A DNA stretch of 64,000 bases from Candidatus Shapirobacteria bacterium (GCA_041661765.1 JBAZTV010000002.1:74212-138211); one strand, 5' to 3'. Counted from the first letter of the stretch, positions 2 to 59,071 are shown. The notes: generated by a model not told the origin, from the letters alone. Made by a program: numbers and translations.

Positions 2-394
2 GTTGACCCTATCCATCAAAAAATATATTCTACTGAAACTGGTTATCTTTCCGATTGGACCTCCGGGTGGGGAATCAAAGAATCAGCAGATTTTCTAAAA
101 CAAAGATCACAAGTTGCTAATGTAATTGTTGGCACTGAAGGTGCTTTTGGTACTCTTCCCGACGGTCTTCAAATCTATTGCAATAAAATTCCTCGATTAA
201 CGATAATTGGTGAAGGTTTAGGTTTTTCCGAATTACCAGTAAATCTAATTGATGCTAAAAATCATGGCGATGAAGTTTATTTATTAATTAATAAATCTCG
301 TCTCAAAATAAACTCAAATCAATTGAATCAATTAGAACTAATAAAATCATTTGATAAACCAAACAATGATCAGTTGCTTTTGTATAAAATTTAA
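2..394 (+). CDS. C-terminal fragment (5'-truncated at the window edge) of a membrane glycosyltransferase-like protein. Its soluble C-terminal domain resembles that of the ArnT/PMT-like paralog at 12014-13615.
   Basis: Frame 2 is open from the window edge to TAA at 392-394. The segment VIVGTEGAFGTLPDG is comparable to VLVGVCGTWGVPEGS in the 12014-13615 product. The six-frame track missed it because the start lies outside the window. Confidence 0.45.
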   Translation, partial: VDPIHQKIYSTETGYLSDWTSGWGIKESADFLKQRSQVANVIVGTEGAFGTLPDGLQIYCNKIPRLTIIGEGLGFSELPVNLIDAKNHGDEVYLLINKSRLKINSNQLNQLELIKSFDKPNNDQLLLYKI

Positions 395-416
395 AAAGCT
401 ACTGTACAATATTATT

Positions 417-13615: not shown

Positions 13616-13637
13616 TTCAAAATGATATCATATATTA

Positions 13638-14051
13638 ATGAATCACAGAGTTGTATTCTTCTTATGTATTCTTTTAATAGTGGGTTGGGTATTTTATTTC
13701 AAATTAAAACCAAATAATTTTTCTCTGCTTTTAAATTTTAAACAACCCACACCAGTTTCTCCTGTCTATTATTTAAAAACAACCAGAGAACAAATACAAT
13801 CCTTATTCATTATGGGCAACAGAGATTCATCTGAATGGAATTTTACCTTATCTCAAAAAAGAGCCCTAGAATCCCAAATACTTTGTGACCATAAATTGTC
13901 AGATTTAGGAAATAAACAATTATCACTGGCTCAAAAATATTATAAAACTGGAACATCTTATTTAAACAATCTTATTGATAAAATTGATACCAACTATCTA
14001 TCACAAGAAAAGGAAAAAACTGAAAATTTGATAAAAAATACTTGTAAATAA
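13638..14051 (+). CDS. Hypothetical small membrane-anchored protein (one N-terminal TM).
   Basis: 137-aa ORF with a clean ATG. It fills the gap between flanking genes and has no motif I recognise. Confidence 0.5.
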   Translation: MNHRVVFFLCILLIVGWVFYFKLKPNNFSLLLNFKQPTPVSPVYYLKTTREQIQSLFIMGNRDSSEWNFTLSQKRALESQILCDHKLSDLGNKQLSLAQKYYKTGTSYLNNLIDKIDTNYLSQEKEKTENLIKNTCK

Positions 14052-14056
14052 ATAAT

Positions 14057-15238: not shown

Positions 15239-15824
15239 ATTATTAATTTTAGTCATCATTGAAATATTTTTTTTAGGATTATTATTTGTAATCTTATCTA
15301 CTATTTTTATTTGGGAACGACCAGGAGTTTCCCAAACATCATTTGAAAAAAATTTACCCCTAGATGTCAATCATTCTTATACCCAATCTATTATTTCCGA
15401 CAGAAACAATTTAAATTCCGTTTCTGTTTTACTAAAGAATCCTGGCTTGCAAAGTAGAGATATCGTTTATATAGAAATCCAAAATAATAATAAAGAAACA
15501 CTCAGATCTTTTAGTATTTCTGGTCGTGGTGTAAAAGATCCTGGTTGGTTAAATTTTAAATTTCCACCACTAAATTCAAAAAAAGGTGATATTTTTCTTT
15601 TAAAAATTAGTAGTAATAGTCAAAAAGATAATCTTCTTTATGTTTATGGTGATCAAAATACTCAAAATATTAATTTCAAAACCACTTTCACCGCTGAAAA
15701 TATAAAAGAATCGTTCAAGGACAATTTAAATCAACAAATAGCTAATTTTCAATCAAGAAATATTTTTCAAACCGTTTTTTATTTATTCTTAATTTTCCTA
15801 GTCGATATTCTTATCTTAATTTAA
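15222..15824 (+). CDS. Hypothetical bitopic membrane protein (N- and C-terminal TM with a central extracytoplasmic domain).
   Basis: ATG at 15222. The track start at 15162 is TTG and overlaps the upstream gene by 77 bp in another frame. No recognisable motif. Confidence 0.5.
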   Translation: MAKISKLLILVIIEIFFLGLLFVILSTIFIWERPGVSQTSFEKNLPLDVNHSYTQSIISDRNNLNSVSVLLKNPGLQSRDIVYIEIQNNNKETLRSFSISGRGVKDPGWLNFKFPPLNSKKGDIFLLKISSNSQKDNLLYVYGDQNTQNINFKTTFTAENIKESFKDNLNQQIANFQSRNIFQTVFYLFLIFLVDILILI

Positions 15825-15847
15825 GATAAGATATTAAATATCTTAAA

Positions 15848-17590
15848 ATGAAAAATAAATCGATTATTTTTAAAATTTCCCTGGCTATTCTTCTTGTTTT
15901 CTCTTTATTTCTTTATTTATACAAAAACACCACAATTCCACCTTCTTTATATTCAGACGAAGCCGATATTAATTACCAAGCCTTTATTTTTAATAAATAT
16001 CACACCGATTATTACGGCAATAAATTTCCTATTCATTTTCATTCATATTCTGACTGGCAACCATCTTTTTTTATTTATTCAGTTGCTTTAACTCAAAAAA
16101 TAATCGGCCACACTGATTCTTCAGTCAGAATTCCAGCGGCTGTTTTTGGAACTTTAACAGTTCTGGTTTTTTGTCTAATTATCAAACTTTTATTAAACAG
16201 TAATATTTGGTCAATTATCGGCGGATTTTTGCTGACCATTTCTCCCTGGCTTTTTCACTACAGTCGTACTGGTTTTGCTGTAACTAATATGCTTTCTTTA
16301 ACCCTTTTAGGTATTTATTTTTGGATAAAATTTATTAAAAATAATCAAGTCAAAAATCTTTTTATTTCCATTATTTCTTTTTCTCTGCTAACTTATTCCT
16401 ATAGTACCGCTAAATTACATCTAATTTTTATTTTTTTAACCCTTTATTTAATTTGGTTTAAAATTATCAATAAAATTTCTCTCAAAAATAAATTAATTAC
16501 CATTTTTTTAGTAATTTTAATTTGTTTACCAGTATTTTCAGACACCCTCAAAGGTCGTGCCGGCTATCGTTTTTCCTACATTAACATTTTTAGCGATCCA
16601 ACAATTAGTAAAACTGTTGATTATTCTCGTCAAGAGGATTCTGCTATGGTTTATGGCCCTCAAATAGGTCTTAAACCTCTATTTATTTCTAAAATTTTTT
16701 ATAACAAACCAGTTCAGTGTTTAGAAATGTTTACTAAAAATTATTTTTCTTCCTTTTCAACCGATTTTCTCTTTTTAAAAGGCGACGGTAATCTACGACA
16801 AGGTATTCAAACCGTTGGTAATTTATTATTTCCTGATTTCTTTTTAATTATCATTGGAATTTCTATAGTTTTCGTCAAAAAATCATCAAATAGTAAATTT
16901 TATCTATTTTTCCTAATCAACTTAATTCTCTCTCCAATTCCATTTGCTTTAACTCGCGATTCTCTCTATCCTCATGCCACTCGTCTAATCTTGATGCTAC
17001 CGTTTTTAATTTTCTTTTCCATTCTTGGACTTAAACAAATTTTTGAAATTACTAAATCCAAATTTTTAATTGCTTTTATTCTATTTTTGTATGTAATCTG
17101 CTTCGGTCGATTTATCCACCAATATTATTTTCATTATCCAAACATTTCTGCTCGTGATTGGCATTATGGAATGAAACAAGCCATTATCAAAGTTCAAAAT
17201 AAAAATTATCAAAAAATCTATTTTATTAATTCTTATGAGCCATTTACTCCTTTCTTTTTAAATTATATTGAATATCTACCATTAAAACAAAATATTTCTC
17301 CTGCTTTATCATTAGTTTCTGAAAACAATCAATTTTTTACTGGTATGCAGGCTGATAACACATATTATCTCGGCAATATTGAATGGTCTGTTTTGTTTAA
17401 TAATCCTCCTTCAAATGCTCTTTTTATTATTCCCAATCAGGACTTAATTAGAGCTCAAAACAGTCTTAACGATTACAATAAAAATCATCAAGACAAAATT
17501 AATTTTAATCAAATAGATAAAGTCTCTAAAAAATATACTGAACAAGAAGAATTTTATTTAGTCACTTTTGATCTAGCAAAAACTAAATAG
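15848..17590 (+). CDS. GT-C membrane glycosyltransferase, ArnT/PMT-like.
   Basis: YSDEADINYQAFIFNKYHTDYYGNKFP in the first extracytoplasmic loop. About 12 TM plus a C-terminal soluble domain. Paralogous to 20910, 22570 and 24194. Confidence 0.75.
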   Translation: MKNKSIIFKISLAILLVFSLFLYLYKNTTIPPSLYSDEADINYQAFIFNKYHTDYYGNKFPIHFHSYSDWQPSFFIYSVALTQKIIGHTDSSVRIPAAVFGTLTVLVFCLIIKLLLNSNIWSIIGGFLLTISPWLFHYSRTGFAVTNMLSLTLLGIYFWIKFIKNNQVKNLFISIISFSLLTYSYSTAKLHLIFIFLTLYLIWFKIINKISLKNKLITIFLVILICLPVFSDTLKGRAGYRFSYINIFSDPTISKTVDYSRQEDSAMVYGPQIGLKPLFISKIFYNKPVQCLEMFTKNYFSSFSTDFLFLKGDGNLRQGIQTVGNLLFPDFFLIIIGISIVFVKKSSNSKFYLFFLINLILSPIPFALTRDSLYPHATRLILMLPFLIFFSILGLKQIFEITKSKFLIAFILFLYVICFGRFIHQYYFHYPNISARDWHYGMKQAIIKVQNKNYQKIYFINSYEPFTPFFLNYIEYLPLKQNISPALSLVSENNQFFTGMQADNTYYLGNIEWSVLFNNPPSNALFIIPNQDLIRAQNSLNDYNKNHQDKINFNQIDKVSKKYTEQEEFYLVTFDLAKTK

Positions 17591-19194
17591 AAACAAAAAA
17601 TTATTGTTGATAATGTTATTAAATCCAATATTTTATTTAAAATAGTTTCTTCATACTTAATTGTAATTTCATGTTTTCCATTTGGCACCAAAAATTGAAT
17701 TTGACCATAAGGTTTACTTGCTATTAAATTTAATTTTTCACCATCAATAAATCCTTTCCATCCAGGAAAATAATATTTATTATAATTTAAAACCAATTCA
17801 GACTCAGAATCTGTTATAAATTTTGTCTCCAAGCTATTAACCAAAGTTATATTTTCAATCGCTTCACTGACTGGATAAACTCGGTCATAAATCTGAGTCG
17901 GTCTAATTTCAGTAGTTTTTGGTAATCGTAAATATTCTTCTTGAAGAGTGAGATACTCCTCACTTGGAGTCGGAACTGGAATATAACGATTAATATAATA
18001 ACTATCATCTCTATTTAAAAAATCATGTGGCCTAAAACGGGGTGTGTTTATAACCATAGAAACCATAATAATTATCACCGCCAATATATTTGAGTATTTA
18101 AAGTTTTTAATTAAAATAACTAGTAACGACGAAGCAAAAACAATCATAGTTAAAAATCGCCAGGGAAATTGAAAATAAGCAATAAGCGGAATATGTTCCC
18201 AAAACCAATAAGACCTAAAGTTCATCATAAACACTGAAACTACAACCAAAAATAAACTCCAAATTGATATTTTTTTAATTTTTAAAGAAATTTTAGAAAA
18301 ACGAAAAATTATAAAAATCGTCGCTACTATTAAAACTATCAAATTAATTTCTCCAACAAAAAAAGACATTCCATCATAAGGCCCAGGCACCGACGCTCCA
18401 TATCCCCAAAAAGGAGTTATTAGTTGTTTTAATGTCGGAAAATGATCAAAAAAATTAAAAACCGTACTATATTTCATTAAATTACTTTCCAAAAGAGCTG
18501 GTAACCAAAAATATATACTCCCTATTAATCCCAAGAAAAACAAAAAGAAAAACTCTTTTATTTTTTCCTTCTTCATAACTAAAAGTGCAAATAATAAAGC
18601 AAATGGAATAAACATATAAGAAACAATATTGTGAGTCAAGATCAATGCTGTTATTGATAACCCCCCAATTCCTACCCACTTAAAATTCTCCTTTTTACTT
18701 TTTACTTCAGCTAATCTAATTAAAGAAAATATTATTAATGGTAAAAACACAAAAGCCAAAGACTCGCCCAATGCTCCTCTGTCATAAATATCAGTTGAGC
18801 GATATGGAGTATAAATATAAAGCACTGCTGCCGCCATACCCACAAATTTTCCTGATAAATGTCTTGCTAAAAAATACATTGTAATCGCGGAAATTAATAA
18901 ACTAAAGATAAAAACAGCTTTGATACTATATACAAAATTCAATCCTAATAAATGAAATATTTCACCTAAGTAATAGGGGAGTGGAAATATAAAGTTAAAT
19001 AAAGGATAACCAAACCCAAAACTCAAATCAGACACATATCTAGGTGGTATCTGTCCTTCGGTAACAGCTTGATCCATTTGCTGCAACCAAGCAATGTGCA
19101 TGTCATCAGATGCTCCAAAAAAACCAGGCCTTATTAAGGCCAACATCGCAGGAACTACTAATAAAACCAATATTAATAATTCTTTTATTTTCAT
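17554..19194 (-). CDS. Polytopic membrane protein, family B (GT-C-like?).
   Basis: ASDDMHIAWLQQMDQAVTEGQIPPRYVSDLSFGFGYPLFNF...FQFPWRFL. Paralog of 1648-3372 and 19191-20876. Its 3' end overlaps 15848-17590 convergently by 37 bp. Confidence 0.75.
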   Translation of the reverse strand: MKIKELLILVLLVVPAMLALIRPGFFGASDDMHIAWLQQMDQAVTEGQIPPRYVSDLSFGFGYPLFNFIFPLPYYLGEIFHLLGLNFVYSIKAVFIFSLLISAITMYFLARHLSGKFVGMAAAVLYIYTPYRSTDIYDRGALGESLAFVFLPLIIFSLIRLAEVKSKKENFKWVGIGGLSITALILTHNIVSYMFIPFALLFALLVMKKEKIKEFFFLFFLGLIGSIYFWLPALLESNLMKYSTVFNFFDHFPTLKQLITPFWGYGASVPGPYDGMSFFVGEINLIVLIVATIFIIFRFSKISLKIKKISIWSLFLVVVSVFMMNFRSYWFWEHIPLIAYFQFPWRFLTMIVFASSLLVILIKNFKYSNILAVIIIMVSMVINTPRFRPHDFLNRDDSYYINRYIPVPTPSEEYLTLQEEYLRLPKTTEIRPTQIYDRVYPVSEAIENITLVNSLETKFITDSESELVLNYNKYYFPGWKGFIDGEKLNLIASKPYGQIQFLVPNGKHEITIKYEETILNKILDLITLSTIIFCFYLVFARSKVTK

Positions 19195-20876
19195 AATAAA
19201 TATTTTTTCTTACTAAAAAAAATTATAATCATACTTATTAATGTTAACAAACTTAAGATATCTCCTATTTGCCTCGGAATAGTTTTTTCCAGTTTAACAA
19301 TTATTTGATGCGAACCTTTATTCAAGTTGAAACTTATTTGTCCAAAACAAAAATCTTGGTTACTGCAATCATTATGGTTAAAAGAAACTGGCAAATTATC
19401 AACAGTCACTTTCATTCCCGGAAAATCAAATATAGGTAATCTTATTTTGGTAACATCACTATCCACATTTATTTCCCCAGTCTGGTAATTACTCCCTTTT
19501 TTGTAATTTTTTACCTCTGCTTTTCCCTCAGTAATTTCCGGAACTTCAGGTGCTTTATAATTTGGCGGTAAAACAGCATTACTTGGTAAATAATCAAAAA
19601 TACTTGCGGTTTGTTGTTTTAAAAATTCTTGACCAGTTAATAATTGCTGATCATTAATCTCTATCCACTTCTGTGGTTTGAAGAAATTTCCATATAAGCA
19701 AAATAATAATAAAACTGTCACTACCATTATTATTTTTTTACCCTTACTACTAAAATAATTAATTGCATATCCAGATAATAATGATAAAAGAAAAGCATTA
19801 ACCACTAAAAATCTCCAAGGAAATTGGAACATAGCCATAAAACCAAAACTTTCCCAAATAAATGCCGATCTTTGATGAATTAGAAAAATAGTTAACAAAC
19901 TTATTCCAGCCAAAACCAAAATAATAATACTATTTTTCTTAGATTTTTTATAATTTTTTATGGCTAAAATTACTCCTATTAAAGATAGTATCCAATGTAT
20001 TTGTCCTACTGAAAGCGATAAATCATCACCTGGGCCCAATTGAGATGAACCATATCCCCAATGATTTGAAATAAATAATTGATATAAATTTACAAAATGT
20101 TGTCGATAATCAAAATAACCACCAGTCATACTATCGAGATGGATATAACCTCTTTCAAAAATTAAAGGCACTATAAAAAATGAAGCCAATCCTGCTCCAA
20201 TTAAAAAGGCCCACAAAATTTTCCATAATTTTTTAATATTTTTTTCTTGTATTAATAAAACAAGTATCCATATTCCTAATATTGGAAAAAACGCCACAGA
20301 CATTAAATTATGCGTCACAAATAAACTAAAAATTGCCAAACCAAAATATAAAACATTATTTTTACCTAAACCTTTAATAATTCGATACGAAAATAAAAAC
20401 AAAAATGGGAATATTGCTAAAGATAAAAATTCACCCAACGACCCTCTTACATAAACTTGAACTGCTCTTACTGGAGCATAAACATACAACAAAGAACCAG
20501 TAAGTGCGACTATTGAATTAGTAAATAAAGTAGACAGTAACCAAAACATTCCTATTCCAGATATTATGAAACCTAGTATAAAAAGTATTTTTACTGAGTC
20601 AATATATTGAAATCCTAAATTATGAAAAACAGTTCCTAAATAATAAGGACCAGGTGAATAATATAAAAACAACGGATACCCAAAACCATACCCCATATCA
20701 GGCACCCAACGGCAAGGTATTTGACCATCCTCAAAACATTTCTCCATTTCATAAATTCGAAAATATTGCATACTATCCTGAATATTATGAATTCCTGGTT
20801 TAAGAATTGTCACAAAAGCTGGAATCGTAAATAAAACTACAGCTAATAGCCAAATACAACGTTTCATATTAATCAT
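19191..20876 (-). CDS. Polytopic membrane protein, family B (GT-C-like?).
   Basis: IQDSMQYFRIYEMEKCFEDGQIPCRWVPDMGYGFGYPLFLYY...FQFPWRFL. The 4-bp overlap with 17554-19194 suggests translational coupling. Confidence 0.75.
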   Translation of the reverse strand: MINMKRCIWLLAVVLFTIPAFVTILKPGIHNIQDSMQYFRIYEMEKCFEDGQIPCRWVPDMGYGFGYPLFLYYSPGPYYLGTVFHNLGFQYIDSVKILFILGFIISGIGMFWLLSTLFTNSIVALTGSLLYVYAPVRAVQVYVRGSLGEFLSLAIFPFLFLFSYRIIKGLGKNNVLYFGLAIFSLFVTHNLMSVAFFPILGIWILVLLIQEKNIKKLWKILWAFLIGAGLASFFIVPLIFERGYIHLDSMTGGYFDYRQHFVNLYQLFISNHWGYGSSQLGPGDDLSLSVGQIHWILSLIGVILAIKNYKKSKKNSIIILVLAGISLLTIFLIHQRSAFIWESFGFMAMFQFPWRFLVVNAFLLSLLSGYAINYFSSKGKKIIMVVTVLLLFCLYGNFFKPQKWIEINDQQLLTGQEFLKQQTASIFDYLPSNAVLPPNYKAPEVPEITEGKAEVKNYKKGSNYQTGEINVDSDVTKIRLPIFDFPGMKVTVDNLPVSFNHNDCSNQDFCFGQISFNLNKGSHQIIVKLEKTIPRQIGDILSLLTLISMIIIFFSKKKYLL

Positions 20877-20909
20877 TATAGCTTAATTAAATGTTAACAT
20901 TATACAAAC

Positions 20910-22586
20910 ATGTCTAAGTTCTACACGATTATTTTTGGATTCATTTTAGTCATTGGATTACTAACTCGTTTTATTAATTTAGATAAATTTCCAGTTGCCC
21001 TAAATTGGGATGAAATTAGTCATGGTTACAACGCCTACAGTTTAATTAATACTGGTAAAGATCAATGGTCAACATCTTGGCCCATTTTTAACTTCCGAGC
21101 CTACGGCGATTATCCCACTATTCTCAATATGTATCTTTCCATGCCTTTTATTTATTTTTTCGGTCTCAACGAATGGACAGTTCGAATTGTTTCTGCCTTT
21201 TGTGGCTTTGGCTTAATTATTATCGCTTTTTTCTTAGGTCAAGAAATTTTTAAAAACAAGAAAAAATCTCTTTTATTAATGTTATTAGTCGTACTATCTC
21301 CTTGGACATTTTTTCCATCGCGCGGTGTTTTTCAGTCAACAGTTGCTCAATTTTTTTTCTCTCTCGGACTTTTATTTTTAATCAAAGCCATCAAAAAAAT
21401 AAAATTTCTTCCACTCGGGATTTTCTTTTTTTCTATTTCTACCTACGCCTATCACAATACTAAAATTGTCGTTCCAATTTTACTTTTAACTTACTTCCTT
21501 ATTTTCTTTAAAGAGATTAAACAAAAAATTTCAAAACATAAAAATTTTTTTACAATCAGTTTATTAGTTCTTTCCATTTTAGTAATCCCTCAATTAATCA
21601 ACACTTTTAATAAAGAAGCTCAAGCCCGAAGTCGCTGGGTTTTTATTATTAATCCAGCATCTATTAATGAAATTGAAAATAATCGTAATATTTATCAAGG
21701 CAGTCAATTAGTCGCCAAACTAAAATATAATCGAGTTACTCTTTTTAGCACTACCGTTTTCAAAAATTATTTAGATTTTGTTAATCCTAAAATTTTATTT
21801 TTCAACAGCACTCAAAACTTTCAATTTAATATCCCCAACACTGGCGTTCTTTATTCTGTTTACTTACCGTTCTTTTACATCGGCCTAATAATTTTAATTT
21901 TAAAATCCATAAAAAAAAGCTCCCCTGAAAATAAAAAATATATTTTTCTTAATTTTTGGTTTTTAATCGGTCTAATCCCCGCAGTTATCACAATCGGTGA
22001 TTTTCCTATTATTCGGGCCATGACAATTTTGCCGCTTCCTCAAATCTTTATAGTTTATGGTTTTTTTAAAACCATTTCCTTTTTAAAAAATTCCAAAACA
22101 AAAACAATTTTTACTATTTTATTTTTAATAATTCTAATTATTCAATCATTTTCATATTTCAAAAATTATTTTAACGACTATTCCCAAAATTATTCTAGTT
22201 CTTGGCAGTACGGGTATAAAGAAACTGTCAATTATATAAAAGAAAATTATAATAGTTACGATCAAATTATTTTTACTAAAAAATATGGCGAAGCCCATGA
22301 ATTTGTTTTATTTTATTGGCCATGGAACCCAAAATCTTACCAAAACGACCCAAATTTAAATTGGGATTTCCATGCCGATTGGTATTGGGTAAATGCATTT
22401 GATAAATTTAAATTTATCAATGATTGGGAAATCAAAAAAGAAACTGAAAAGTTAGATAAAAAAACCCTTTTAATCACCTCTCCAGGCAATTATAATAAAA
22501 GCAATAGCGCATTAATCAAAACCGTTTATTTTCTCAACCAAACACCGGCTTTTGATATTTTAAGCATCAATGATCAAAAACAATAA
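20910..22586 (+). CDS. GT-C membrane glycosyltransferase, ArnT/PMT-like. First of a tandem triplet.
   Basis: NWDEISHGYNAYSLINTGKDQWSTSWPIFNFRAYGDYP...RIVSAF. Confidence 0.8.
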   Translation: MSKFYTIIFGFILVIGLLTRFINLDKFPVALNWDEISHGYNAYSLINTGKDQWSTSWPIFNFRAYGDYPTILNMYLSMPFIYFFGLNEWTVRIVSAFCGFGLIIIAFFLGQEIFKNKKKSLLLMLLVVLSPWTFFPSRGVFQSTVAQFFFSLGLLFLIKAIKKIKFLPLGIFFFSISTYAYHNTKIVVPILLLTYFLIFFKEIKQKISKHKNFFTISLLVLSILVIPQLINTFNKEAQARSRWVFIINPASINEIENNRNIYQGSQLVAKLKYNRVTLFSTTVFKNYLDFVNPKILFFNSTQNFQFNIPNTGVLYSVYLPFFYIGLIILILKSIKKSSPENKKYIFLNFWFLIGLIPAVITIGDFPIIRAMTILPLPQIFIVYGFFKTISFLKNSKTKTIFTILFLIILIIQSFSYFKNYFNDYSQNYSSSWQYGYKETVNYIKENYNSYDQIIFTKKYGEAHEFVLFYWPWNPKSYQNDPNLNWDFHADWYWVNAFDKFKFINDWEIKKETEKLDKKTLLITSPGNYNKSNSALIKTVYFLNQTPAFDILSINDQKQ

Positions 22587-24210
22587 ACTTTTTCTAATAA
22601 TTATTTTTTTAATTGCCTTTTTCTTAAGGTTTTACAAGGTAGGGGAATATCCAACTTTTCTTTGGGATGAAGCTTCACTCGGTTACAATGCCTATTCAAT
22701 TATTGAAACTGGTAAAGACGAATATGGCCAAACTTTACCAATTATTTTTAAATCATTTGGCGACTATAAACCTGGTCTTTATGTTTATTTAGCCATTCCA
22801 TTTATTAAAATTTTTGGACTAACAACCACCACTACTCGTTTACCGTCAATAATTTTAGGTTCTCTTCTGCCAATTCTAATCTACTTTCTAATTAAAGAAA
22901 TCAACCCCAAAGCCCACAAGACCGCTATTTTTGCCGCTCTTATTACTGTCTTCAATCCTTATTCAATTCATTTTTCTCGTGGCGCCTGGGAAAGTAATGT
23001 CTTAACTTTTGAATTAGTATTGGCTTCTTTTCTCTTTTTTAAATACATCAACAAAAAAAATGATAAATATCTTTTTTGGTCCGCAATTATTTTTGGTTTG
23101 ACACTTTTTACTTATCAGGCCGGAAAAATGATCAGTCTTTTTTTGATCGTTATTTTATTTTTAATCAATTTCAAAATAGTCAACAAAAAAAATATCAAAA
23201 GTTTATTTTTAAATTTTATTTTACCCCTTCTGATTTTTTCAGCCCCCATAGTTTATGGCTTATTTTTCGGAAGTAATGCCAATCGCTTAAAAGTCGTCAG
23301 TCTTTTTTCTTATCCTCGCTCCGCTCAAGAGTCCAATATTATCATTAATGAAAGTAACCAATTAGATTATGAAATTTTCCATAATCACACTTCTTTTTTT
23401 GGTCGCGGATTTTTACTTCGCTATTTTAATCATTTTTCGCCCAAATTCTTAGCCTTTGAAGGTGATTGGCAAAATCCTCGACAATCAGCTCCTTATATTG
23501 GTGTAATTCTTTATCCAAGTTTAATTTTTCTAATCTTAGGTATATTTTTTGCCTTAAGTCGCCCAAAAATTGACAAAATTAATATTTTCTTCTTACTCTG
23601 GCTTTTAATTGCCCCAATTCCTGCCGCTCTTACTCGCGACACTGTTCAAGGCCTTCGTTCTATGTCTTTTTCCATTCCTTTAATTTATTTTATTTCTCTT
23701 GGTATTTATTTCATCGTCAACAAATATAAAAATATTTTTCTCTATTGCTTGATTTTTGGTGCTTATTTACTTTCTTTCATTTATTACAGTGACCTTTATT
23801 TGAATCACATGATTAAAAAAAGTCCCGATGATTTTCTTTATGGCTATCAACAATCAATGGAATATTTGGTCAAAAATCAAAATAAATTTCAAAACATTAT
23901 CATGAGTGATTATTACGGCCAAGCATATATTTTTTATCTTTTCTATTCAAAATATCCGCCACAATCTTATCAGCAACAAGCTAAACTAATCGAAAATTTA
24001 TCAGGTGACACCGGCAAAATCGAGCAAATTGATAATATTAAATTTACCACTCCTGACTATAATTCAATCAAAAATCAACCCAACACATTAGCAATTTTTA
24101 ATTACAACGAAATTTATCGCCAATTTATCGATAAATCCAATAATTTTAAAGACTTCTTACCATTAAGCCCAATCAATAATATTTCCACTTTTTATGCTTA
24201 CCAAAATTAA
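22570..24210 (+). CDS. GT-C membrane glycosyltransferase, ArnT/PMT-like. Second of the tandem triplet.
   Basis: LWDEASLGYNAYSIIETGKDEYGQTLPIIFKSFGDYKPGLYVYLAIPFIKIFGL. Overlaps neighbours by 17 bp. Confidence 0.8.
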   Translation: MIKNNKLFLIIIFLIAFFLRFYKVGEYPTFLWDEASLGYNAYSIIETGKDEYGQTLPIIFKSFGDYKPGLYVYLAIPFIKIFGLTTTTTRLPSIILGSLLPILIYFLIKEINPKAHKTAIFAALITVFNPYSIHFSRGAWESNVLTFELVLASFLFFKYINKKNDKYLFWSAIIFGLTLFTYQAGKMISLFLIVILFLINFKIVNKKNIKSLFLNFILPLLIFSAPIVYGLFFGSNANRLKVVSLFSYPRSAQESNIIINESNQLDYEIFHNHTSFFGRGFLLRYFNHFSPKFLAFEGDWQNPRQSAPYIGVILYPSLIFLILGIFFALSRPKIDKINIFFLLWLLIAPIPAALTRDTVQGLRSMSFSIPLIYFISLGIYFIVNKYKNIFLYCLIFGAYLLSFIYYSDLYLNHMIKKSPDDFLYGYQQSMEYLVKNQNKFQNIIMSDYYGQAYIFYLFYSKYPPQSYQQQAKLIENLSGDTGKIEQIDNIKFTTPDYNSIKNQPNTLAIFNYNEIYRQFIDKSNNFKDFLPLSPINNISTFYAYQN

Positions 24211-25816
24211 TAAATTACCATTAATAATTATTCTTATCGTTGCCATTTTAATTCGTTTTATTAATATTGGCTCCATGCCATCACTTAATGCCGACGAGGC
24301 TGCTCTCGGTTACAATGCCTACTCCCTTATCGAAACCGGTAAAGACGAACACGGCATCTCTTGGCCTCTTCATTTTAAATCATTTGGGGATTACAAACCG
24401 GGCGGCTATGTATATTTAGCCATACCTTTCGTCAAAATTTTTGGCCTCACACCATTGGCTGTCAGATTGCCAAATTTGATACTTTCTATATTAACTATCC
24501 TTTTTTTATACAAATTAATTTTCCTTTTATCAAAAAATAATAAACTAGCAGTTTTAACTGCTGCTGTTTTAACTTTTTCACCATGGCACATTCATTTTAG
24601 TCGCGGCGCCTGGGAATCTTCCGCAGCCCTCTCTTTTATTATAATTGGCACCTATTTTTTCTTCAAATCAATCAAAGAAAAATTTTTATTAAATTTTAAT
24701 TTGTTTGTTGTTCTTTATGTTTTATCACTTTACATTTATCATTCAGCTCGTCTAATTGCTCCACTTTTAGCATTAACTTTGATTGTTCTTTATTTCAAAA
24801 ATTTAATTAAAAAATTCCCTCAAATTTTAATTCCTCTTTTTATTGGTGTTCTTTTGGCCATACCGGTAACTTATTCCTTTTTACAAAATGGAGGAACCGC
24901 CCGTATCGGTGGTGTTGGCTTAACTGCCGATCAAGGCCCAATTTGGCGTGCTAACGAGCTTTTAAATCATCATAATAATGTCAAATTAATTAATCGCATC
25001 ATGCACAACAAAAGATTTCTTTATTTAATTTCTTGGAGTCAAAAATATACTTCTCATTTTGATTTAAATTTTTTAGCTATTAATGGCGACGAAGTCCCTC
25101 GTTCTAAAGTTCCCGAAATGGGTCAAATTTATTTAATTGAGTTGCCCTTTCTTTTTCTCGGTCTCATTTTTCTTCTCAAATCTACGATCTATGATCGACG
25201 ATCTAAAATCTTTCTTATTGCCTTTTTATTAATCGCCCCAATTGCTTCATCCTTAACCTATCAAGCACCATCCGCCCTCAGAGCCCTTTCTATGGTTGTT
25301 CCCTTATCAATTTTAATTGCTCTTGGAATTTACTCTTTCTTTTCTTTTTTTAAAAATAAAAATATTTTAAAGGTAATTTCCATCATATTCATTACTATCT
25401 ATGGATATTTTGTCACCTATTATTTTGATGCTTATTTTGTTCATTATCCTAAAAGATACCCTTATGCCTGGGAATATGGCTTTGATCAATTAGTCCCTTA
25501 TTTGGAAAGTCAAAAAAATAATTACGACAAAGTTTACGTCACCGACAAATATGACCAACCATATATTTTATTTTTATTTTTTTCTAAATATCCGCCAGAA
25601 AAAATTCAACAAGAAATAAAACTAACTTCCCCTGATCAATATGGTTTTTCTACTGTCCTAAATTTCGATAAATACATTTTTCAAAAAATTGAATGGGGTA
25701 AGATTCCTCCAAATTCACTAGTTGTAACCAGTGATGAATTAGTTCCACTTGAACCTTTTAAAATTATTAATTTCCCAAATGGACAACCAGGGTTTAAAAT
25801 CTATTCAAAACAATGA
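24194..25816 (+). CDS. GT-C membrane glycosyltransferase, ArnT/PMT-like. Third of the tandem triplet.
   Basis: NADEAALGYNAYSLIETGKDEHGISWPLHFKSFGDYKPGGYVYLAIPFVKIFGL. About 60-70% identical to 22570-24210 in this loop. Confidence 0.8.
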   Translation: MLTKINKLPLIIILIVAILIRFINIGSMPSLNADEAALGYNAYSLIETGKDEHGISWPLHFKSFGDYKPGGYVYLAIPFVKIFGLTPLAVRLPNLILSILTILFLYKLIFLLSKNNKLAVLTAAVLTFSPWHIHFSRGAWESSAALSFIIIGTYFFFKSIKEKFLLNFNLFVVLYVLSLYIYHSARLIAPLLALTLIVLYFKNLIKKFPQILIPLFIGVLLAIPVTYSFLQNGGTARIGGVGLTADQGPIWRANELLNHHNNVKLINRIMHNKRFLYLISWSQKYTSHFDLNFLAINGDEVPRSKVPEMGQIYLIELPFLFLGLIFLLKSTIYDRRSKIFLIAFLLIAPIASSLTYQAPSALRALSMVVPLSILIALGIYSFFSFFKNKNILKVISIIFITIYGYFVTYYFDAYFVHYPKRYPYAWEYGFDQLVPYLESQKNNYDKVYVTDKYDQPYILFLFFSKYPPEKIQQEIKLTSPDQYGFSTVLNFDKYIFQKIEWGKIPPNSLVVTSDELVPLEPFKIINFPNGQPGFKIYSKQ

Positions 25817-26640
25817 AAAATTCAAAAAGAACCATTTCAGTAGCTATTGCCACTTATAATGAAGAAAACAATATTGAGCGATGTTTAAACGCCGTGTCTG
25901 ACTGGGTCGACGAAATAATCATTGTCGATGGTAATTCTCAGGATAAAACCATCGAGGTTGCCTCTAAATTTAAAAAGGTCAAAATAATAAAAACCACCAA
26001 CAAACCAATTTTTCATATCAATAAAAATATTGCTATTGACGCTTGTACTAGTGATTGGATTCTTCAACTCGATGCTGATGAAATTGTCACCCCGGAGCTC
26101 AAAAAAGAAATCATTTCGTATTTAGAAAAAAATATCGATGATGTTAAACAAAATGGTTTTTGGATTCCAAGGAAAAATTATTTTCTCGGTGCTTTTTTAA
26201 AAAAAGGCGGTCAATATCCCGACCCCACCATTAGATTTTATAAAAAAGGAAAAGGACGTCTTCCGTGTGTCGATGTCCATGAACAAGCCGAAATAGAAGG
26301 GGCTGTGGGTTGGCTTAAAAATGATTTAGAACATTACGCCGACACTTCTTTTTCCAAATATCTTCTTCGCCATAATCGTTACACCACACTTTTAGCCCAA
26401 GAATTACAAGAGAAAAAAACAAAAATAAATTTTATAAATTTTATAAATTTTTACCTTTATAAACCGACCTGGTGGTTTTTAAAAACTTTTTTTCGTCACC
26501 GTGGCTATGTTGACGGCTTTCCTGGTTTTGTTTTTTCTTTCTATTCCGCCTTAAGATTCCCAATTTTTTACACTAAATATTGGGAATTGGTCAAAACCAA
26601 TCGTCAAATCGACTTAAAAAATGATTGGGATAAAAAATAA
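25813..26640 (+). CDS. Glycosyltransferase family 2 (LPS-core type). Paralog of 6486 and 8334.
   Basis: ISVAIATYNEENNIERCLNAVSDWVDEIIIVDGNSQDKT...LDADE. C-terminal YWELVK. Confidence 0.8.
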   Translation: MKNSKRTISVAIATYNEENNIERCLNAVSDWVDEIIIVDGNSQDKTIEVASKFKKVKIIKTTNKPIFHINKNIAIDACTSDWILQLDADEIVTPELKKEIISYLEKNIDDVKQNGFWIPRKNYFLGAFLKKGGQYPDPTIRFYKKGKGRLPCVDVHEQAEIEGAVGWLKNDLEHYADTSFSKYLLRHNRYTTLLAQELQEKKTKINFINFINFYLYKPTWWFLKTFFRHRGYVDGFPGFVFSFYSALRFPIFYTKYWELVKTNRQIDLKNDWDKK

Positions 26641-27720
26641 ATGGATAAAAAAATAAAAATCGCCATTGATATTTCTCCAACTCAAGATGGAAATGCTGTT
26701 CGTGGTGTTGGATACTACACATCAAATTTAGTTTCCGCCCTTCAAAAAGAAATTAAAAATAACCCAGATTATAAAAACTATCAAATTGATCTAATTAAAA
26801 ATATCAACGATCTATTGTCTACAACCTATAACCTAATTCACTATCCCTATTTCGATCCTTTTAAAACGACTTTGCCTAAAAAAACTGAAATACCCACTAT
26901 TGTCACCGTTCACGATCTTATTCCTATTCAATTCAAAAGTCATTTTCCGGTCGGCATTAAAGGCAACATTAAGTGGCTTTTACAAAAAAAACGTCTTTTA
27001 AAAGTCGATAAAATTTTAACTGTTTCTCATTACTCTAAAAACATTATTAACAGAATCACTAAATATAAATTAAACGATATTTTTGTCACCTATTTGGCCG
27101 CCGATAAAAATTTTAAAGTTTCATCCGATTCAAAAAAATTAAAAGAAATCAAAGATAAATACAAGCTTCCGTCAAAATTTATCCTATTTATTGGAGATAT
27201 TAATTGGAATAAAAATATTCCAACATTAGTCAAAACCTGTTCAAAACTAAATTATCCATTAGTAATTGTTGGCTCTGCTGCTACCAAAAAAGATGTTCCA
27301 AATCATCCTTGGACTCAAGATCTTCTTTGGCTTCAATCGCAAAAATCTTCAAATTTAATTTTCACCGGTTTTGTTCCAGATGAAGAACTTCCTTTTATTT
27401 ATAATCTAGCCACCGTCTATTGCCAACCATCTTTTGCTGAAGGTTTTGGTCTGCCATTAATTCAAGCCATGCAATCCGGTTGTCCTGTGGCATACAGTCA
27501 AGATTCTTGCCTAGATGAAATTATGGACTCCAATGGTCTTAAATTTGATCCCCATTCTCCAAAAAAATTAGAAAAAGTTTTAAAAAAATTTTGGAATAAT
27601 CAAAATATAAGACAAAAATATGCTAAACTTGGGCTAATCCGCGCCAAGAATTTTAATTGGCAAAACACTGCTCTTCAAACACTTACCCTTTATAATTTGG
27701 TGTTATCAAATGAAAAATAG
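26641..27720 (+). CDS. Glycosyltransferase family 4 (glycos_transf_1).
   Basis: FAEGFGLPLIQAMQSGCPVAYSQDSCLDEI (E-X7-E region). N-terminal acceptor domain. Confidence 0.85.
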   Translation: MDKKIKIAIDISPTQDGNAVRGVGYYTSNLVSALQKEIKNNPDYKNYQIDLIKNINDLLSTTYNLIHYPYFDPFKTTLPKKTEIPTIVTVHDLIPIQFKSHFPVGIKGNIKWLLQKKRLLKVDKILTVSHYSKNIINRITKYKLNDIFVTYLAADKNFKVSSDSKKLKEIKDKYKLPSKFILFIGDINWNKNIPTLVKTCSKLNYPLVIVGSAATKKDVPNHPWTQDLLWLQSQKSSNLIFTGFVPDEELPFIYNLATVYCQPSFAEGFGLPLIQAMQSGCPVAYSQDSCLDEIMDSNGLKFDPHSPKKLEKVLKKFWNNQNIRQKYAKLGLIRAKNFNWQNTALQTLTLYNLVLSNEK

Positions 27721-28513
27721 TAATCATTTTCTATCGGTCATAATCCCTATCTATAAACAAGAAAAAACCATTAAAAAAGATCTTCAAACCATAAACGAAA
27801 CTCTCAAACAAATTCGTTACAACTACGAAATTATCGCCGTTGTTGATGGTACTTCGATTGATAAATCACTTAAAGAAATCAAAAAATTAAAATTAAAAAA
27901 CCTAAAGGCTTTTGGTTACAAAACTAACCATGGTAAAGGCTATGCGGTTCGTTATGGCATGGCCAAAACCCAAGGCGATTACATTGCCTTTATTGATTCC
28001 GGCATGGAAATCGACCCTAATGGGATTTCTTTAGTATTAGAACACATGGAATGGTACAACGCCGATATAATAGTTGCTTCCAAGCGTCACCCAGCATCAA
28101 TGGTAAATTACCCATTAGATAGGAGAATTATTAGTTTTGGTGCCCATATTATTTCCAAATTTTTATTAGGAATTAATGTTCACGATACTCAAGCCGGATT
28201 AAAAATTTTCAAACGACCAGTTTTAATAAAAGTTCTTCCACGCCTTCTAGTCAAAAACTATGCTTTTGATCTAGAAATTTTATCGGTTGCTAATAAATTA
28301 GGATTTACTAAAATTTACGAAGCCCCAATTAAATTAAATTACGACTTTAAAAGTTTAACTCACGCCACTGGTCTTAAAACTATTTATAGTTGTCTTATGG
28401 AAGCTCTCGCTGTTTTTTATAGACTCAAAATTCTAAATTATTACGACGATAAAAATAAAAGAAAATGGGTTTACGATCCAGAATTAGAAATGAGAATTAA
28501 TACTGGAAAATAA
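27710..28513 (+). CDS. GT2 polyprenyl-phosphate glycosyltransferase (DPM1/GtrB-like, soluble form).
   Basis: FLSVIIPIYKQEKTIKKDL...IIAVVDGTSIDKS...FIDSGMEIDPNGI...HDTQAGLKIF. No C-terminal TM pair. Confidence 0.65.
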   Translation: MKNSNHFLSVIIPIYKQEKTIKKDLQTINETLKQIRYNYEIIAVVDGTSIDKSLKEIKKLKLKNLKAFGYKTNHGKGYAVRYGMAKTQGDYIAFIDSGMEIDPNGISLVLEHMEWYNADIIVASKRHPASMVNYPLDRRIISFGAHIISKFLLGINVHDTQAGLKIFKRPVLIKVLPRLLVKNYAFDLEILSVANKLGFTKIYEAPIKLNYDFKSLTHATGLKTIYSCLMEALAVFYRLKILNYYDDKNKRKWVYDPELEMRINTGK

Positions 28514-28515
28514 TT

Positions 28516-29487
28516 ATGAAAACTCCTATCTTTTCGATTATTATTCCAGTCCGACAAATCAATCCTTATCTAAAAGAAACTTTATTAAAATTAAAAAAAC
28601 AATCAGTTAAGAATTTTGAAGTATTAGTCATAACCGACGAAATTTCTGGATCAGCCAATCCTTCAGAAAAAAGAAATCTCGGCACTAAAACAGCTAAAGG
28701 GGATTATTTGGTTTTTTTTGACGACGATTCTTTTCCAAGTAAAAATTATTTTAAAAACGCTTTTAAATTAATCACCAAAAATCCCACTTTTGCCGCTTTT
28801 TGTGGTCCATGTATTACCCCACCCAAAGATAATTTATATCAAAAAGCCTCTGGTCTAGTTTGGTCTAGTTGGTTTGGTAGTGGCGGTGCTGGTGTTTATC
28901 GAAACAGTGTTCAAAAAACCCGTTTTGTTGATGATTATCCTTCTGTTAATCTCATTGTCAAAAAAAGTGATTTTAATTTAGCTGGTGGTTTTGACAGTTC
29001 TTATTGGCCCGGCGAAGATACTGTTCTTTGTTTAAAATTAGTCAAAAAACTTAATAAAAAAATTTATTATCACCCATCTTTAATTGTTTACCACCATCGT
29101 CGTTCAGTAATTATTCCCCATCTCCAACAAATTACTCGTTACGCCATCCAGCGTGGTTTTTTTGTCAAAAAATTTCCAGAAACCAGTCGAAAAATTGGTT
29201 ATTTTATTCCCAGCATATTTACTCTCTATATTATTTTAATAACAATTTTTCCATTAAATTTTTTATTTAAACTACCATTATATTTATATTTATCAATATT
29301 ATTTTTTACTTTTTTAAAATTTATTTTTCAAAAAAACAATCCCAAAGTTTCATTTTTAGCTGTAATTTCCATACCTCTTACTCATCTTTACTACGGTATA
29401 CTATTCCTACATGGCTTATTCAAAAAAGAAGTTACATTTAAACCTCACAACTTCGATCCACAAACCGGAAAATACATCGGTGGTTAA
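28516..29487 (+). CDS. Glycosyltransferase family 2 with C-terminal transmembrane segments.
   Basis: IFSIIIPVRQINPYLKETL...FFDDDSFP. Three or four C-terminal hydrophobic helices. Confidence 0.8.
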   Translation: MKTPIFSIIIPVRQINPYLKETLLKLKKQSVKNFEVLVITDEISGSANPSEKRNLGTKTAKGDYLVFFDDDSFPSKNYFKNAFKLITKNPTFAAFCGPCITPPKDNLYQKASGLVWSSWFGSGGAGVYRNSVQKTRFVDDYPSVNLIVKKSDFNLAGGFDSSYWPGEDTVLCLKLVKKLNKKIYYHPSLIVYHHRRSVIIPHLQQITRYAIQRGFFVKKFPETSRKIGYFIPSIFTLYIILITIFPLNFLFKLPLYLYLSILFFTFLKFIFQKNNPKVSFLAVISIPLTHLYYGILFLHGLFKKEVTFKPHNFDPQTGKYIGG

Positions 29488-30910
29488 ATCAGTTTCAATT
29501 TCCTATCCGCCATTAGAATCTAAAAAAGGCACTCCTTTTTTATCCCAAAATCGTCAATTTCAATGGACAAATACTGGAAATGTAATTTATCCAATTATTC
29601 CTGCCTATGCCGCCACTTTGTTAAAAAGTAAAGATTTAAAAATTTTTTGGGATGATGCCATTGCTCAAAATTTAACCTATAAAGAATGGTTTAAGCAGTT
29701 TCAAAAAAACAAACCTGATTTAATTGCTATTGAGACTAAAACCCCAGTCGTCAAAAAACATTGGCAAATTATCAATCAAATAAAAAAAGAATGTAAATGG
29801 AAACCGATTATCGTTTTAATGGGTGATCATGTCAGCGCTCTTCCAGAAGAATCAACCAAAAACTCAAAAGTCGATTTTGTTTTAATTGGTGGCGATTATG
29901 ATTTTTTATTAGATGAATTAATCGAATTAATTAATCAAGGTAAAACTCCAAAAAACAAGATTTTTAAACTTCAAAAAGGTCACGATTTAAATTCCTTGCC
30001 AATTATTGATCGACAACTAACTCAATGGCAACTTTATGCTTACAATAATACTAATTATAAATATAAGCCAGGATCATACATCATGTCAGGCCGTGACTGT
30101 TGGTGGGGAAAATGTACTTTTTGTTCTTGGACAACTCTTTTTCCAGGTAAAAACTTTCGCCATTTTTCTATCGAACACACTTTAAAAGAAATTGAAAATC
30201 TTGTTTATAATTTTGGTATCAAAGAAATTTTTGATGATTCAGGAACTCTTCCTATCGGCCCTTGGTTAAAAGAATTATGTCAGGCTTTAATTAGTCGCGG
30301 TCTAAATAAAAAAGTAAAAATCGGCTGTAATATGCGTTTTGGTGCACTTTCTTTGTCAGAATATAAATTAATGCACCAGGCCGGCTTTCGTTTCATTCTA
30401 TATGGTCTTGAATCCGCCAATCAATCAACTCTCAATTTTATAAATAAAAATGAAAAAACCTCTGATGCTCTAAAAACTCTAAAAATTGCTAAGGCTGCCA
30501 AACTCGAACCACACATCACCGTCATAATTGGGTATCCCAATGAAACTCTGGAAGACGCTCAAAAAACTTTAAATTTAGCCAGAAAAATTTTTAAAGACGG
30601 TTTAGCTGACAGTCTTCAAGCCACTATTTTAATTCCTTACCCTGGCACCCCACTTTTTAAATATTGTCAGGAAAATAATTTACTTTTAACCAATAATTGG
30701 GATGATTTTGATATGCGTCAACCGGTGATTAAAACGCCGATTTCTTCCGCTCATCAATTAAAATTAGTTCAGGGTCTATTCAAAGGCATTCTCACTCCCA
30801 AATTTATTTTAAAAAAAATAATTTCTATTCGATCTACAAAAGATATTCGACATCTTTCCAATTACGCTTTTAAATATCTTAAAAAATTAAAAGATTTTTC
30901 TAAAAAATGA
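29411..30910 (+). CDS. Cobalamin-binding (class B) radical-SAM enzyme with a non-canonical CX4CX2C cluster motif.
   Basis: N-terminal B12-binding-like Rossmann region (KPIIVLMGDHVSALPEE), then GRDCWWGKCTFCSW at 30098-30124. Homologous in layout to 36576-38090. An alternative GTG start at 29480 would cut the overlap with the upstream gene from 77 to 8 bp. Confidence 0.8.
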   Translation: MAYSKKKLHLNLTTSIHKPENTSVVKSVSISYPPLESKKGTPFLSQNRQFQWTNTGNVIYPIIPAYAATLLKSKDLKIFWDDAIAQNLTYKEWFKQFQKNKPDLIAIETKTPVVKKHWQIINQIKKECKWKPIIVLMGDHVSALPEESTKNSKVDFVLIGGDYDFLLDELIELINQGKTPKNKIFKLQKGHDLNSLPIIDRQLTQWQLYAYNNTNYKYKPGSYIMSGRDCWWGKCTFCSWTTLFPGKNFRHFSIEHTLKEIENLVYNFGIKEIFDDSGTLPIGPWLKELCQALISRGLNKKVKIGCNMRFGALSLSEYKLMHQAGFRFILYGLESANQSTLNFINKNEKTSDALKTLKIAKAAKLEPHITVIIGYPNETLEDAQKTLNLARKIFKDGLADSLQATILIPYPGTPLFKYCQENNLLLTNNWDDFDMRQPVIKTPISSAHQLKLVQGLFKGILTPKFILKKIISIRSTKDIRHLSNYAFKYLKKLKDFSKK

Positions 30911-31509
30911 AAAATTACGATTGGTTCCATTTAATGGAAACATATAAAAACATAGTAAGACCAAATTTTATAGTTCTAGAAATTGGAGCCTCTACTATCG
31001 ATAGAACTAATGAAATAGCAAAATATTGCCAAAAATTAATTGGAGTTGAATATTTAAATGAAAGACTACTTAAAAACCACAATAATATTCACTACCAATT
31101 AGGTGATTGGCAAAAATTAACTAAAGTAATTCCCCAAAACAGTATTGATTTAGCAATTAGTAGTCATACTATAGAACATATACCAAACGATATTAAAGCA
31201 CTAAACAAACTCTATTCGGTCTTAAAACCAAACAGTTATGCAATTTTAAACACCCCAAACAGAAAAAGATTGGTTAGACAGATAATTGAACTATTTACTA
31301 ACGAAAGACAGTTTCCGTATTGGGAACATATTCGTGAATATACTGAAGACGATTTAATTAAATTAATTAAAAAAACTAAATTTAAAGAATATAAAATAAC
31401 TCCAGTTTGTTTTGGTATTCATGGAGGTAATATTAAGTTTTACCTTAAAAAAGTGCCAAAACATTTTAGAAAATTTTCTAATTTTTGGGAAATAGTTTTA
31501 AAAAAATAA
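30907..31509 (+). CDS. Class I SAM-dependent methyltransferase.
   Basis: FIVLEIGASTIDRT (motif I), LAISSHTIEHIPND, LKPNSYAIL. 4-bp overlap with the upstream gene. Confidence 0.7.
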   Translation: MKNYDWFHLMETYKNIVRPNFIVLEIGASTIDRTNEIAKYCQKLIGVEYLNERLLKNHNNIHYQLGDWQKLTKVIPQNSIDLAISSHTIEHIPNDIKALNKLYSVLKPNSYAILNTPNRKRLVRQIIELFTNERQFPYWEHIREYTEDDLIKLIKKTKFKEYKITPVCFGIHGGNIKFYLKKVPKHFRKFSNFWEIVLKK

Positions 31510-59024: not shown

Positions 59025-59071
59025 CTACTGAGTATATCAAAATAAAATATCTTGTTATAATAATCCTACCA

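Follow-up and report, generated by a model that had tools for sequence, protein, structure and literature searches.

A probably ancient, positionally fixed set of GT-C glycosyltransferase paralogues in a predicted surface-glycan operon of Candidatus Shapirobacteria

We analysed a 64,000-nucleotide stretch of DNA from a Candidatus Shapirobacteria bacterium (GCA_041661765.1, JBAZTV010000002.1:74212-138211), referred to here as the window. It contains three consecutive genes for putative membrane glycosyltransferases of the GT-C class, which we named c1, c2, and c3 in gene order; a fourth paralogue upstream was named c0. An earlier reading of the sequence, the original prediction, had taken the three genes for a recently amplified tandem array undergoing neofunctionalization. 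Such an amplification would have been a useful evolutionary snapshot, but that is not the case here. Instead, c1, c2, and c3 are probably (about 0.72) an ancient, positionally fixed paralogue set that carries out non-redundant steps of surface-glycan synthesis within a conserved operon, with a donor and an acceptor that we infer. The locus would then be an ordinary surface-glycan operon kept across many uncultivated Patescibacteria and not a fresh amplification.

An open reading frame (ORF) scan confirmed three intact paralogues on the plus strand. They are c1 (20910..22586; 558 amino acids, PMT_2-type by Pfam), c2 (22570..24210; 546 amino acids, PMT/PMT_2-type), and c3 (24194..25816; 540 amino acids, PMT-type), which is the sister paralogue of c2. 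Their relationship is far above chance, with BLASTP E values of 2e-84 (c2/c3), 2e-54 (c1/c3), and 2e-51 (c1/c2). The junction sequences also confirmed an overlap of 17 nucleotides at both boundaries, at 22570..22586 (c2 ATG at 22570, c1 stop codon at 22584-22586) and at 24194..24210 (c3 ATG at 24194, c2 stop codon at 24208-24210). The c3 ATG lies inside the conserved c2 C-terminus, which ends ...FYAYQN. Neither c2 nor c3 has a later ATG, GTG, or TTG ahead of its first transmembrane helix. Therefore, both overlaps are genuine and do not arise from choosing the longest ORF. There are three adjacent copies, as had been claimed, but the family is not limited to this triplet. c0 (15848..17590, plus strand, 580 amino acids) belongs to the same GT-C family, with 23-28% identity to c1-c3 (BLASTP E values of 3e-47 to 4e-16), a Pfam PMT_2 score of 47.4 bits, and its own orthogroup in the tree described below.

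The three copies have diverged extensively. Global amino acid identity is 30.6% for c1/c2, 30.3% for c1/c3, and 38.0% for c2/c3, and nucleotide identity is 0.48-0.53. Over whole genes, third codon positions are identical at 0.37-0.47, compared with about 0.33 by chance. Synonymous divergence (dS; Nei-Gojobori, NG86) between paralogues was 1.2 to >2 or undefined. Pairwise alignment and a dN/dS ratio for each domain of the paralogues had been proposed as a check. The alignment was informative, but with saturated dS the paralogue dN/dS was not, and so we used comparisons between orthologues instead. That dN/dS between the copies cannot be calculated, their synonymous sites being saturated, is in itself a sign of old duplications. 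The high nucleotide identity and unsaturated synonymous sites of a recent amplification were not found in the trio.

We compared the locus with those of related genomes. The synteny sample comprised 23 loci of GTDB species representatives and 2 loci from metagenomes or metagenome-assembled genomes, in which ORFs were classified against the window genes. Three more distant Patescibacteria loci (L026-L028) were reached through c1 homologues at 40-47% identity. In other Candidatus Shapirobacteria, each copy has orthologues with which it shares 62-92% identity. For c1, near-clade orthologues were 62-83% identical and those of the far clade 40-43%, and its relatives as a whole formed a gradient that began at 100% and ended at about 40%. 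c2 matched more than 120 orthologue clusters at 63-92% identity, with source names that included Candidatus Shapirobacteria, and c3 orthologues were 68-92% identical. Since the paralogues share only 30-38%, each copy is closer to the genes of other genomes than to its own neighbours. Across all loci, the highest identity between any two family members of one locus was 37.5%.

Gene order is also conserved. Every locus with enough flanking sequence had the order c1-c2-c3-GT2 (275 amino acids)-GT4-GT2-GT2-radical SAM, and in all of these c1, c2, and c3 occurred once each. L025 keeps this order although its c2 is only 43% identical to that of the window. In L026-L028, three PMT-type genes are followed by GT2 and GT4 genes, and the three score best against hidden Markov models (HMMs) of the c1, c2, and c3 orthogroups, in that order (625, 487, and 543 bits in L026, versus 321, 370, and 320 for the next-best model).

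A neighbour-joining tree of 110 family members (60 bootstraps) grouped the paralogues by position and not by genome. c1 (including L025), c2, and c3 formed three clades with one gene per genome each, recovered in 60/60, 60/60, and 59/60 bootstraps, and c2 and c3 were sisters (57/60). By these sequence comparisons, the duplications appear to be older than the common ancestor of all genomes sampled. The comparison of copy number with related genomes, another proposed check, did reveal variation, with runs of three to six consecutive PMT-type genes across the loci and a maximum of seven when YfhO-like and GT87-like GT-Cs are included. However, there were no young duplicates and c1-c3 themselves did not vary. 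The variation was limited to equally old clades upstream of c1, or to an extra clade between c1 and c2. Paralogues grouped by genome, or copies varying among close relatives, as a recent amplification should leave behind, were not seen.

c1 lies directly upstream of c2 in all loci except three, in which an extra PMT-type gene of about 538 amino acids, from a clade of its own, is inserted between them (L009:906-2525, L014:8398-10014, and L017:8384-10000). In L014 and L017 the inserted gene is preceded by a ~205-amino-acid ORF to which we could assign no function. The closest species-level relative, L008, is a nucleotide-identity mosaic with respect to the window (0.73-0.96 per 300 nucleotides). 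A step from 0.76 to 0.96 falls precisely on the c2/c3 junction (window 24180-24780), and dS over the first 100 codons of c3 is 0.075, compared with 0.5-0.7 for its remaining codons. The pattern suggests that a tract was exchanged by recombination between populations. Many GTDB-representative records of Shapirobacteria-type loci (L005, L007, L011, L013-L015, L018, L020, and L022-L025) are titled "uncultured Gammaproteobacteria bacterium" (TPA assemblies), which is almost certainly a taxonomic mislabel.

The original prediction had described highly conserved N-terminal loops and divergent C-terminal halves. The first part was correct. The first ~100 aligned columns, which cover transmembrane helix 1 and the first extracytoplasmic loop, are 42-63% identical among the paralogues, and the loop carries an Asp-Glu (DE) motif. 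In c2 this loop is encoded at 22666..22824 (plus strand), with counterparts at 24293-24451 in c3 and at about 21005-21066 in c1. c2 and c3 both contain the peptides that had been quoted as near-identical, with 18 of 23 positions matching when counted by eye. D33 and E34 (c2 numbering) are invariant in c0-c3 and conserved in all three orthogroups; in a 40-sequence alignment they are invariant together with Y39, A41, and D50. The second part did not hold. Outside the first ~100 columns, paralogue identity is about flat at 21-40%, so that everything after residue ~100, including the membrane core, has diverged about equally.

We also found no sign of ongoing diversification in the C-terminal domains. 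dN/dS between orthologues was about 0.05-0.17 across all three regions of the proteins, which points to purifying selection on each copy along its whole length. For the C-terminal domain it was about 0.05-0.16, no higher than for the membrane core. Therefore, this domain is neither relaxed nor diversifying. Shared sites, which were at least 85% conserved within every orthogroup and had the same residue across groups, were enriched in residues 1-100 (21/100 versus 26/446 elsewhere, p=1e-5). Group-specific fixed sites, which were conserved within each group but differed between groups, were enriched in residues 411-546 (21/136 versus 23/410, Fisher p=8e-4). The idea that the paralogues are specialised in their C-terminal domains thus survives in a different form, as residues fixed long ago and not as current diversification. 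The copies differ mainly by such anciently fixed residues, concentrated in the C-terminal domain.

The assignment of the trio to the GT-C class was borne out by Pfam, which matched PMT and/or PMT_2 in all three proteins, and by an AlphaFold model of c2. PMT and PMT_2 are families of GT-C enzymes that depend on polyprenyl-phosphate sugars. PMT_2 scored 28.3 bits for c1 (cut-off 26.1) and 41.7 bits for c2. PMT (PF02366; gathering threshold 22.7 bits) scored above threshold for c2 (48.7) and c3 (25.8) and below it for c1 (18.3). The c2 model (predicted local distance difference test score [pLDDT] 87.2, predicted template modelling score [pTM] 0.88) has about 11 membrane helices, counted from the helix list, a long loop at residues 234-316, and an alpha/beta domain from about residue 420. 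When it was compared with the PDB by Foldseek, all 17 matches at E<=1e-3 were GT-C enzymes (STT3, PglB, ArnT, and ALG12). The matched folds included STT3/PglB, ArnT, ALG9/12, Emb, AftB, Pmt1-Pmt2 (6p25), and EmbA-EmbB (7bvf).

The predicted soluble alpha/beta domain at the C-terminus of c2 (residues ~411-546, encoded at 23800..24207 on the plus strand) has equivalents at the 3' ends of c1 and c3. It had no Pfam match. A search with it among 1.84 billion representatives returned 232 clusters at E<=1e-3. In full-length matches, which were proteins of ~530-575 amino acids, it was always C-terminal; the other matches were fragments. We take it to be a family-specific module of ~130 residues.

The genes that follow the trio, all on the plus strand, suggest the pathway in which it might act. 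c3 is followed by a GT2 gene (25813..26640, 275 amino acids; Pfam Glycos_transf_2, 8.8e-25) that overlaps it by four nucleotides (ATGA). This GT2 followed c3 in every locus with flanking sequence, with an overlap of 4 or 1 nucleotides, and is the invariant downstream partner. Next is a GT4 gene (26641..27720, 359 amino acids; Pfam Glycos_transf_1), by synteny a conserved member of the operon, and then a second GT2 gene (27710..28513, 267 amino acids; Pfam GT2), which is a candidate polyprenyl-phosphate-sugar synthase. For the latter, PpgS, ArnC, and PgfS were matched only weakly in NCBIfam, at scores that fell far short of the cut-offs. The third GT2 gene (28516..29487, 323 amino acids; Pfam, synteny) encodes three C-terminal hydrophobic helices by hydropathy, a GtrB-like architecture. 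The last gene of the conserved order (29411..30910, 499 amino acids; synteny) is predicted to encode a B12-type radical SAM enzyme (Pfam Radical_SAM, with a sub-threshold HpnJ-like NCBIfam match). Upstream, on the minus strand, two genes for PTPS_related/YfhO-like GT-Cs of 546 and 561 amino acids (17554..20876; Pfam PF10131) separate c0 from the trio. This inverted pair is a variable cassette. It is shared by L002, L003, and L006, and in L005, L007, L008, L010, L022, and L024 its position is taken by a single plus-strand relative at 35-38% identity.

One distant locus contains a fusion of the two enzyme classes. L028:5891-8305 encodes an 804-amino-acid protein with an N-terminal GT2 domain and a PTPS_related/YfhO-like GT-C membrane domain. 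Its GT2 half is 33% identical to the candidate synthase at 27710-28513, which is its best match in the window. Its GT-C half is 37% identical to the products of 19191-20876 and 1648-3372, and closest to the former. Taken as a Rosetta-stone fusion, this would link donor synthases and GT-Cs functionally.

The sequence content of the window suggests that most of it (1-59000; for example, 351-6466, 12014-25816, 39005-40783, and 54315-55880) is a single glycan-biosynthesis island. It encodes at least 12 polytopic GT-C-like proteins (PMT_2, PTPS_related, and GT87-like, with unassigned proteins of eight transmembrane helices at 4757-6466 and 54315-55880) and has about 15 GT2/GT4 genes. By hydropathy, GT2s with C-terminal helices resembling the GtrB type are encoded at 57200-58141 and 46327-47547 as well as at 28516-29487. 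A Wzx-type Polysacc_synt protein is encoded at 3345-4799, and there is also an ABC-2 transporter with its ATPase. The window also encodes an acyltransferase, two B12-type radical SAM enzymes, several methyltransferases, DegT-type aminotransferases, epimerases, and FdtA-like and hexapeptide transferases. Judging by related contigs of 0.7-1.1 Mb, the genome may well be small, and surface glycans would then take up a very large share of it.

In the scheme that we favour, the trio would head a translationally coupled operon, c1-c2-c3-GT2-GT4-GT2-GT2 (with transmembrane helices)-radical SAM. The cytoplasmic GT2 enzymes of the island would load sugars onto polyprenyl phosphate, and the lipid-linked sugars would be flipped to the outer face. 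c1, c2, and c3 would then act as inverting sugar transferases on a cell-surface glycan (or glycoprotein), each with its own position, linkage, or acceptor, as non-redundant steps and not as spare copies. Use of a polyprenyl-phosphate-sugar donor is likely from their fold and family. Distinct specificities, and a glycan and not a protein as the acceptor, are likewise what we infer for them. In characterised systems of this kind, a GT-A-fold synthase makes the undecaprenyl-phosphate (Und-P) sugar, a flippase carries it to the other side of the membrane, and there a periplasmic GT-C transfers the sugar with inversion (PMC11754754). Paired GT-Cs can give different positional specificity, as with SccM and SccQ (PMC11754754). 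By analogy, this synthase/flippase/GT-C scheme is the best-supported mechanism for c1-c3.

A more ambitious version is possible, although we lean clearly against it as a whole. c1-c3 and the invariant GT2 and GT4 might form an extracytoplasmic glycan assembly line, widespread in Microgenomates-type Patescibacteria, in which the GT-Cs act in a fixed sequence, possibly in a physical complex analogous to ALG3/9/12 or EmbA-EmbB, and the C-terminal domain reads the growing acceptor. If so, its product would be a lineage-defining surface glycan of ultra-small, probably host-attached bacteria.

Several observations weigh against the non-redundant-operon reading. A single-sequence search of the PDB gave no match at E<=1, and a 40-sequence profile reached only ArnT (5EZM), at a non-significant E=0.12. 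NCBIfam had no equivalog for the trio, only sub-threshold matches to Agl23 and LA_3751/3752. Among the ORFs of the window that were scanned, Pfam matched no small GtrA/GtcA-type flippase. The fused GT-C of L028 belongs to the PTPS_related/YfhO-like branch and is not one of c1-c3. The C-terminal domain is probably extracytoplasmic, from the helix count and by analogy. Co-transcription of the operon is likewise suggested by the gene overlaps; a promoter/terminator scan was uninformative in this 30% GC DNA, with 74 promoter-like sites compared with 66 expected. The tree is based on distances only.

The trio might instead be protein O-glycosyltransferases similar to bacterial PMTs, acting on surface proteins such as an S-layer protein or pilin and not on a polysaccharide. 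We consider this unlikely, yet far from negligible. c2 and c3 score above the gathering threshold of Pfam PMT, and all copies have the DE motif in loop 1, a hallmark of PMTs. In addition, a minus-strand gene of the window (39005-40783) encodes a 592-amino-acid protein with a PMT_2-type membrane domain and C-terminal TPR repeats. We take this architecture to recall TMTC-type protein O-mannosyltransferases, and it hints that some GT-Cs of the island may glycosylate proteins. However, MIR and PMT_4TMC domains were absent from a Pfam scan of the trio (E<=0.01), c1 does not reach the PMT cut-off, and the fold match to Pmt1-Pmt2 spans only 266 columns. The soluble C-terminal domain gives the proteins an architecture closer to ArnT or PglB. 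The gene context, with Wzx, ABC-2, many GT2/GT4 genes, and sugar-modifying enzymes, is also of the polysaccharide type.

A second alternative is that the paralogues are not independent enzymes but parts of an obligate hetero-oligomer, such as a dimer of c2 and c3. These two are sister paralogues and always adjacent, and their conserved stop/start overlap is consistent with translational coupling and matched stoichiometry. The heteromeric structures 6p25 and 7bvf are among the fold matches, yeast Pmt1-Pmt2 being one precedent and EmbA-EmbB heterodimers another (PMC7305291). Even so, all three copies keep their catalytic residues and none is obviously a non-catalytic partner. Coupling would also not be peculiar to this pair, as 26 same-strand neighbour pairs overlap in the window when the longest ORF is taken, some of which may have over-called starts. 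We regard an obligate hetero-oligomer as improbable.

That the trio is a recently amplified array with acceptor-binding domains that are diversifying now is very improbable. Besides adjacency on one strand, it has in its favour two equal overlaps and one stretch of similar DNA. The overlaps were rejected as a duplication scar. In orthologous loci the c1/c2 overlap is 4, 8, 14, or 17 nucleotides, and it is 14 in the closest relative, L008. Throughout the near clade the c2/c3 overlap measures 17-20 nucleotides, and its TTTTTATGC context was found again in the far clade. A pair of window genes unrelated to the trio (35375-36592 and 36576-38090) also overlaps by 17 nucleotides. Because the c1/c2 length varies and an unrelated pair has the same length, the match between the two overlaps is coincidental. 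The similar DNA is the sole notable repeat among the copies, a 159-nucleotide tract in the DE-motif loop that is 77% identical between c2 and c3. Of its 53 codons, 43 encode identical residues, and at these the third position matches in 25, compared with 23.2 expected from codon usage. Gene conversion was ruled out on this basis, and the tract is explained by protein-level constraint together with codon bias. Against a recent array stand also the 30-38% identity and saturated synonymous sites of the paralogues, the separate orthogroup of each copy with its fixed position even in distant genomes, and the low dN/dS of the C-terminal domains.

An assembly artefact, such as a mis-assembled repeat or an expanded or collapsed array, has virtually no chance of being the explanation: only the tandem arrangement speaks for it, whereas the ORFs are intact, the copies share no long nucleotide repeat beyond the one 77% tract, and the same trio recurs in over 20 assemblies made independently by different projects.

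We noted some further features of the island. The two B12-binding radical SAM paralogues (29411-30910 and 36576-38090) are 25% identical, and a class I methyltransferase gene comes after each of them (30907-31509 and 38092-38970). These pairs may point to C-methylated or otherwise unusual sugars. In L002, the GT4 gene downstream of the trio (L002:14049-15188) is split into ORFs of 213 and 158 amino acids, whereas in the near-identical L003 it is intact (379 amino acids). A frameshift, a pseudogene, or a sequencing error could account for the split. Near the end of the window, 59006-62780 encodes an acetaldehyde dehydrogenase, an HMGL-like/DmpG aldolase, and an acetolactate-synthase-like thiamine pyrophosphate enzyme. 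This segment could be where the glycan island ends, or it could provide the enzymes for an unusual sugar side-chain.

For these uncultivated organisms, whose envelope chemistry has hardly been characterised, the module provides a defined candidate set for heterologous expression, and the 21 orthogroup-specific fixed residues of the C-terminal domain (c2 414-544) are a concrete hypothesis for the site of acceptor specificity. Our literature search on GT-C arrays or glycosylation in Candidate Phyla Radiation (CPR) bacteria or Patescibacteria found nothing relevant.

ArnT (GT83; 5EZM/5F15) is the best overall structural match in size (TMq 0.50-0.52, TMt 0.50-0.53). It has the same plan of a membrane domain followed by a C-terminal periplasmic domain, and the sequence profile reached no other PDB chain. 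However, that match was not significant, and the C-terminal domain of the trio is a small family of its own. ArnT modifies lipid A, and CPR bacteria are not known to have lipid A. On sequence grounds, the trio does not demonstrably belong to the ArnT family. The protein O-mannosyltransferases (GT39; Pmt1-Pmt2 and bacterial Pmt) share the PMT score (c2 and c3) and the invariant Asp-Glu pair of loop 1 with the trio, and their paralogous subfamilies act as heterodimers (6p25). They differ in the MIR and PMT_4TMC domains, which were not found in the trio, in the score of c1, and in aligning over only 266 columns (Pmt2). The trio is best placed, tentatively, in the PMT/PMT_2 branch, lacking the accessory domains of true PMTs.

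The three-component systems of Gram-positive bacteria (Streptococcus mutans SccN/SccM and SccP/SccQ, and CsbB/GtcA/YfhO) also place GT2 genes beside GT-C genes. They can have several GT-Cs per surface-polysaccharide cluster, each adding a side-chain at a different position (PMC11754754; PMC7389260). The GtrB-like C-terminal helices on GT2s of the window and the GT2::GT-C fusion in L028 are further similarities. However, no GtrA/GtcA-type flippase was identified among the ORFs scanned in the window, and c1-c3 are of the PMT/PMT_2 type and not the YfhO type. Known three-component systems have one or two GT-Cs, whereas here three to six lie in a row.

The closest known arrangement is mycobacterial embC-embA-embB. 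The Emb proteins are about 1,050-1,090 residues long, with carbohydrate-binding C-terminal domains, whereas those of the trio are half that size. Fold matches of c2 to Emb cover the membrane core only (TMq 0.36-0.44), with no detectable sequence similarity, and the loop 1 motif is DDx in Emb and DE in the trio. In both, three co-oriented genes for GT-C paralogues lie side by side, and the proteins have a membrane domain at the N-terminus and a periplasmic domain at the C-terminus (predicted for the trio), use a polyprenyl-phosphate-sugar donor (again predicted for the trio), and place an acidic catalytic residue within one of the early extracytoplasmic loops. The Emb copies are specialised for different acceptors, as we would expect of the trio, and two of them form a heterodimer (PMC7305291).

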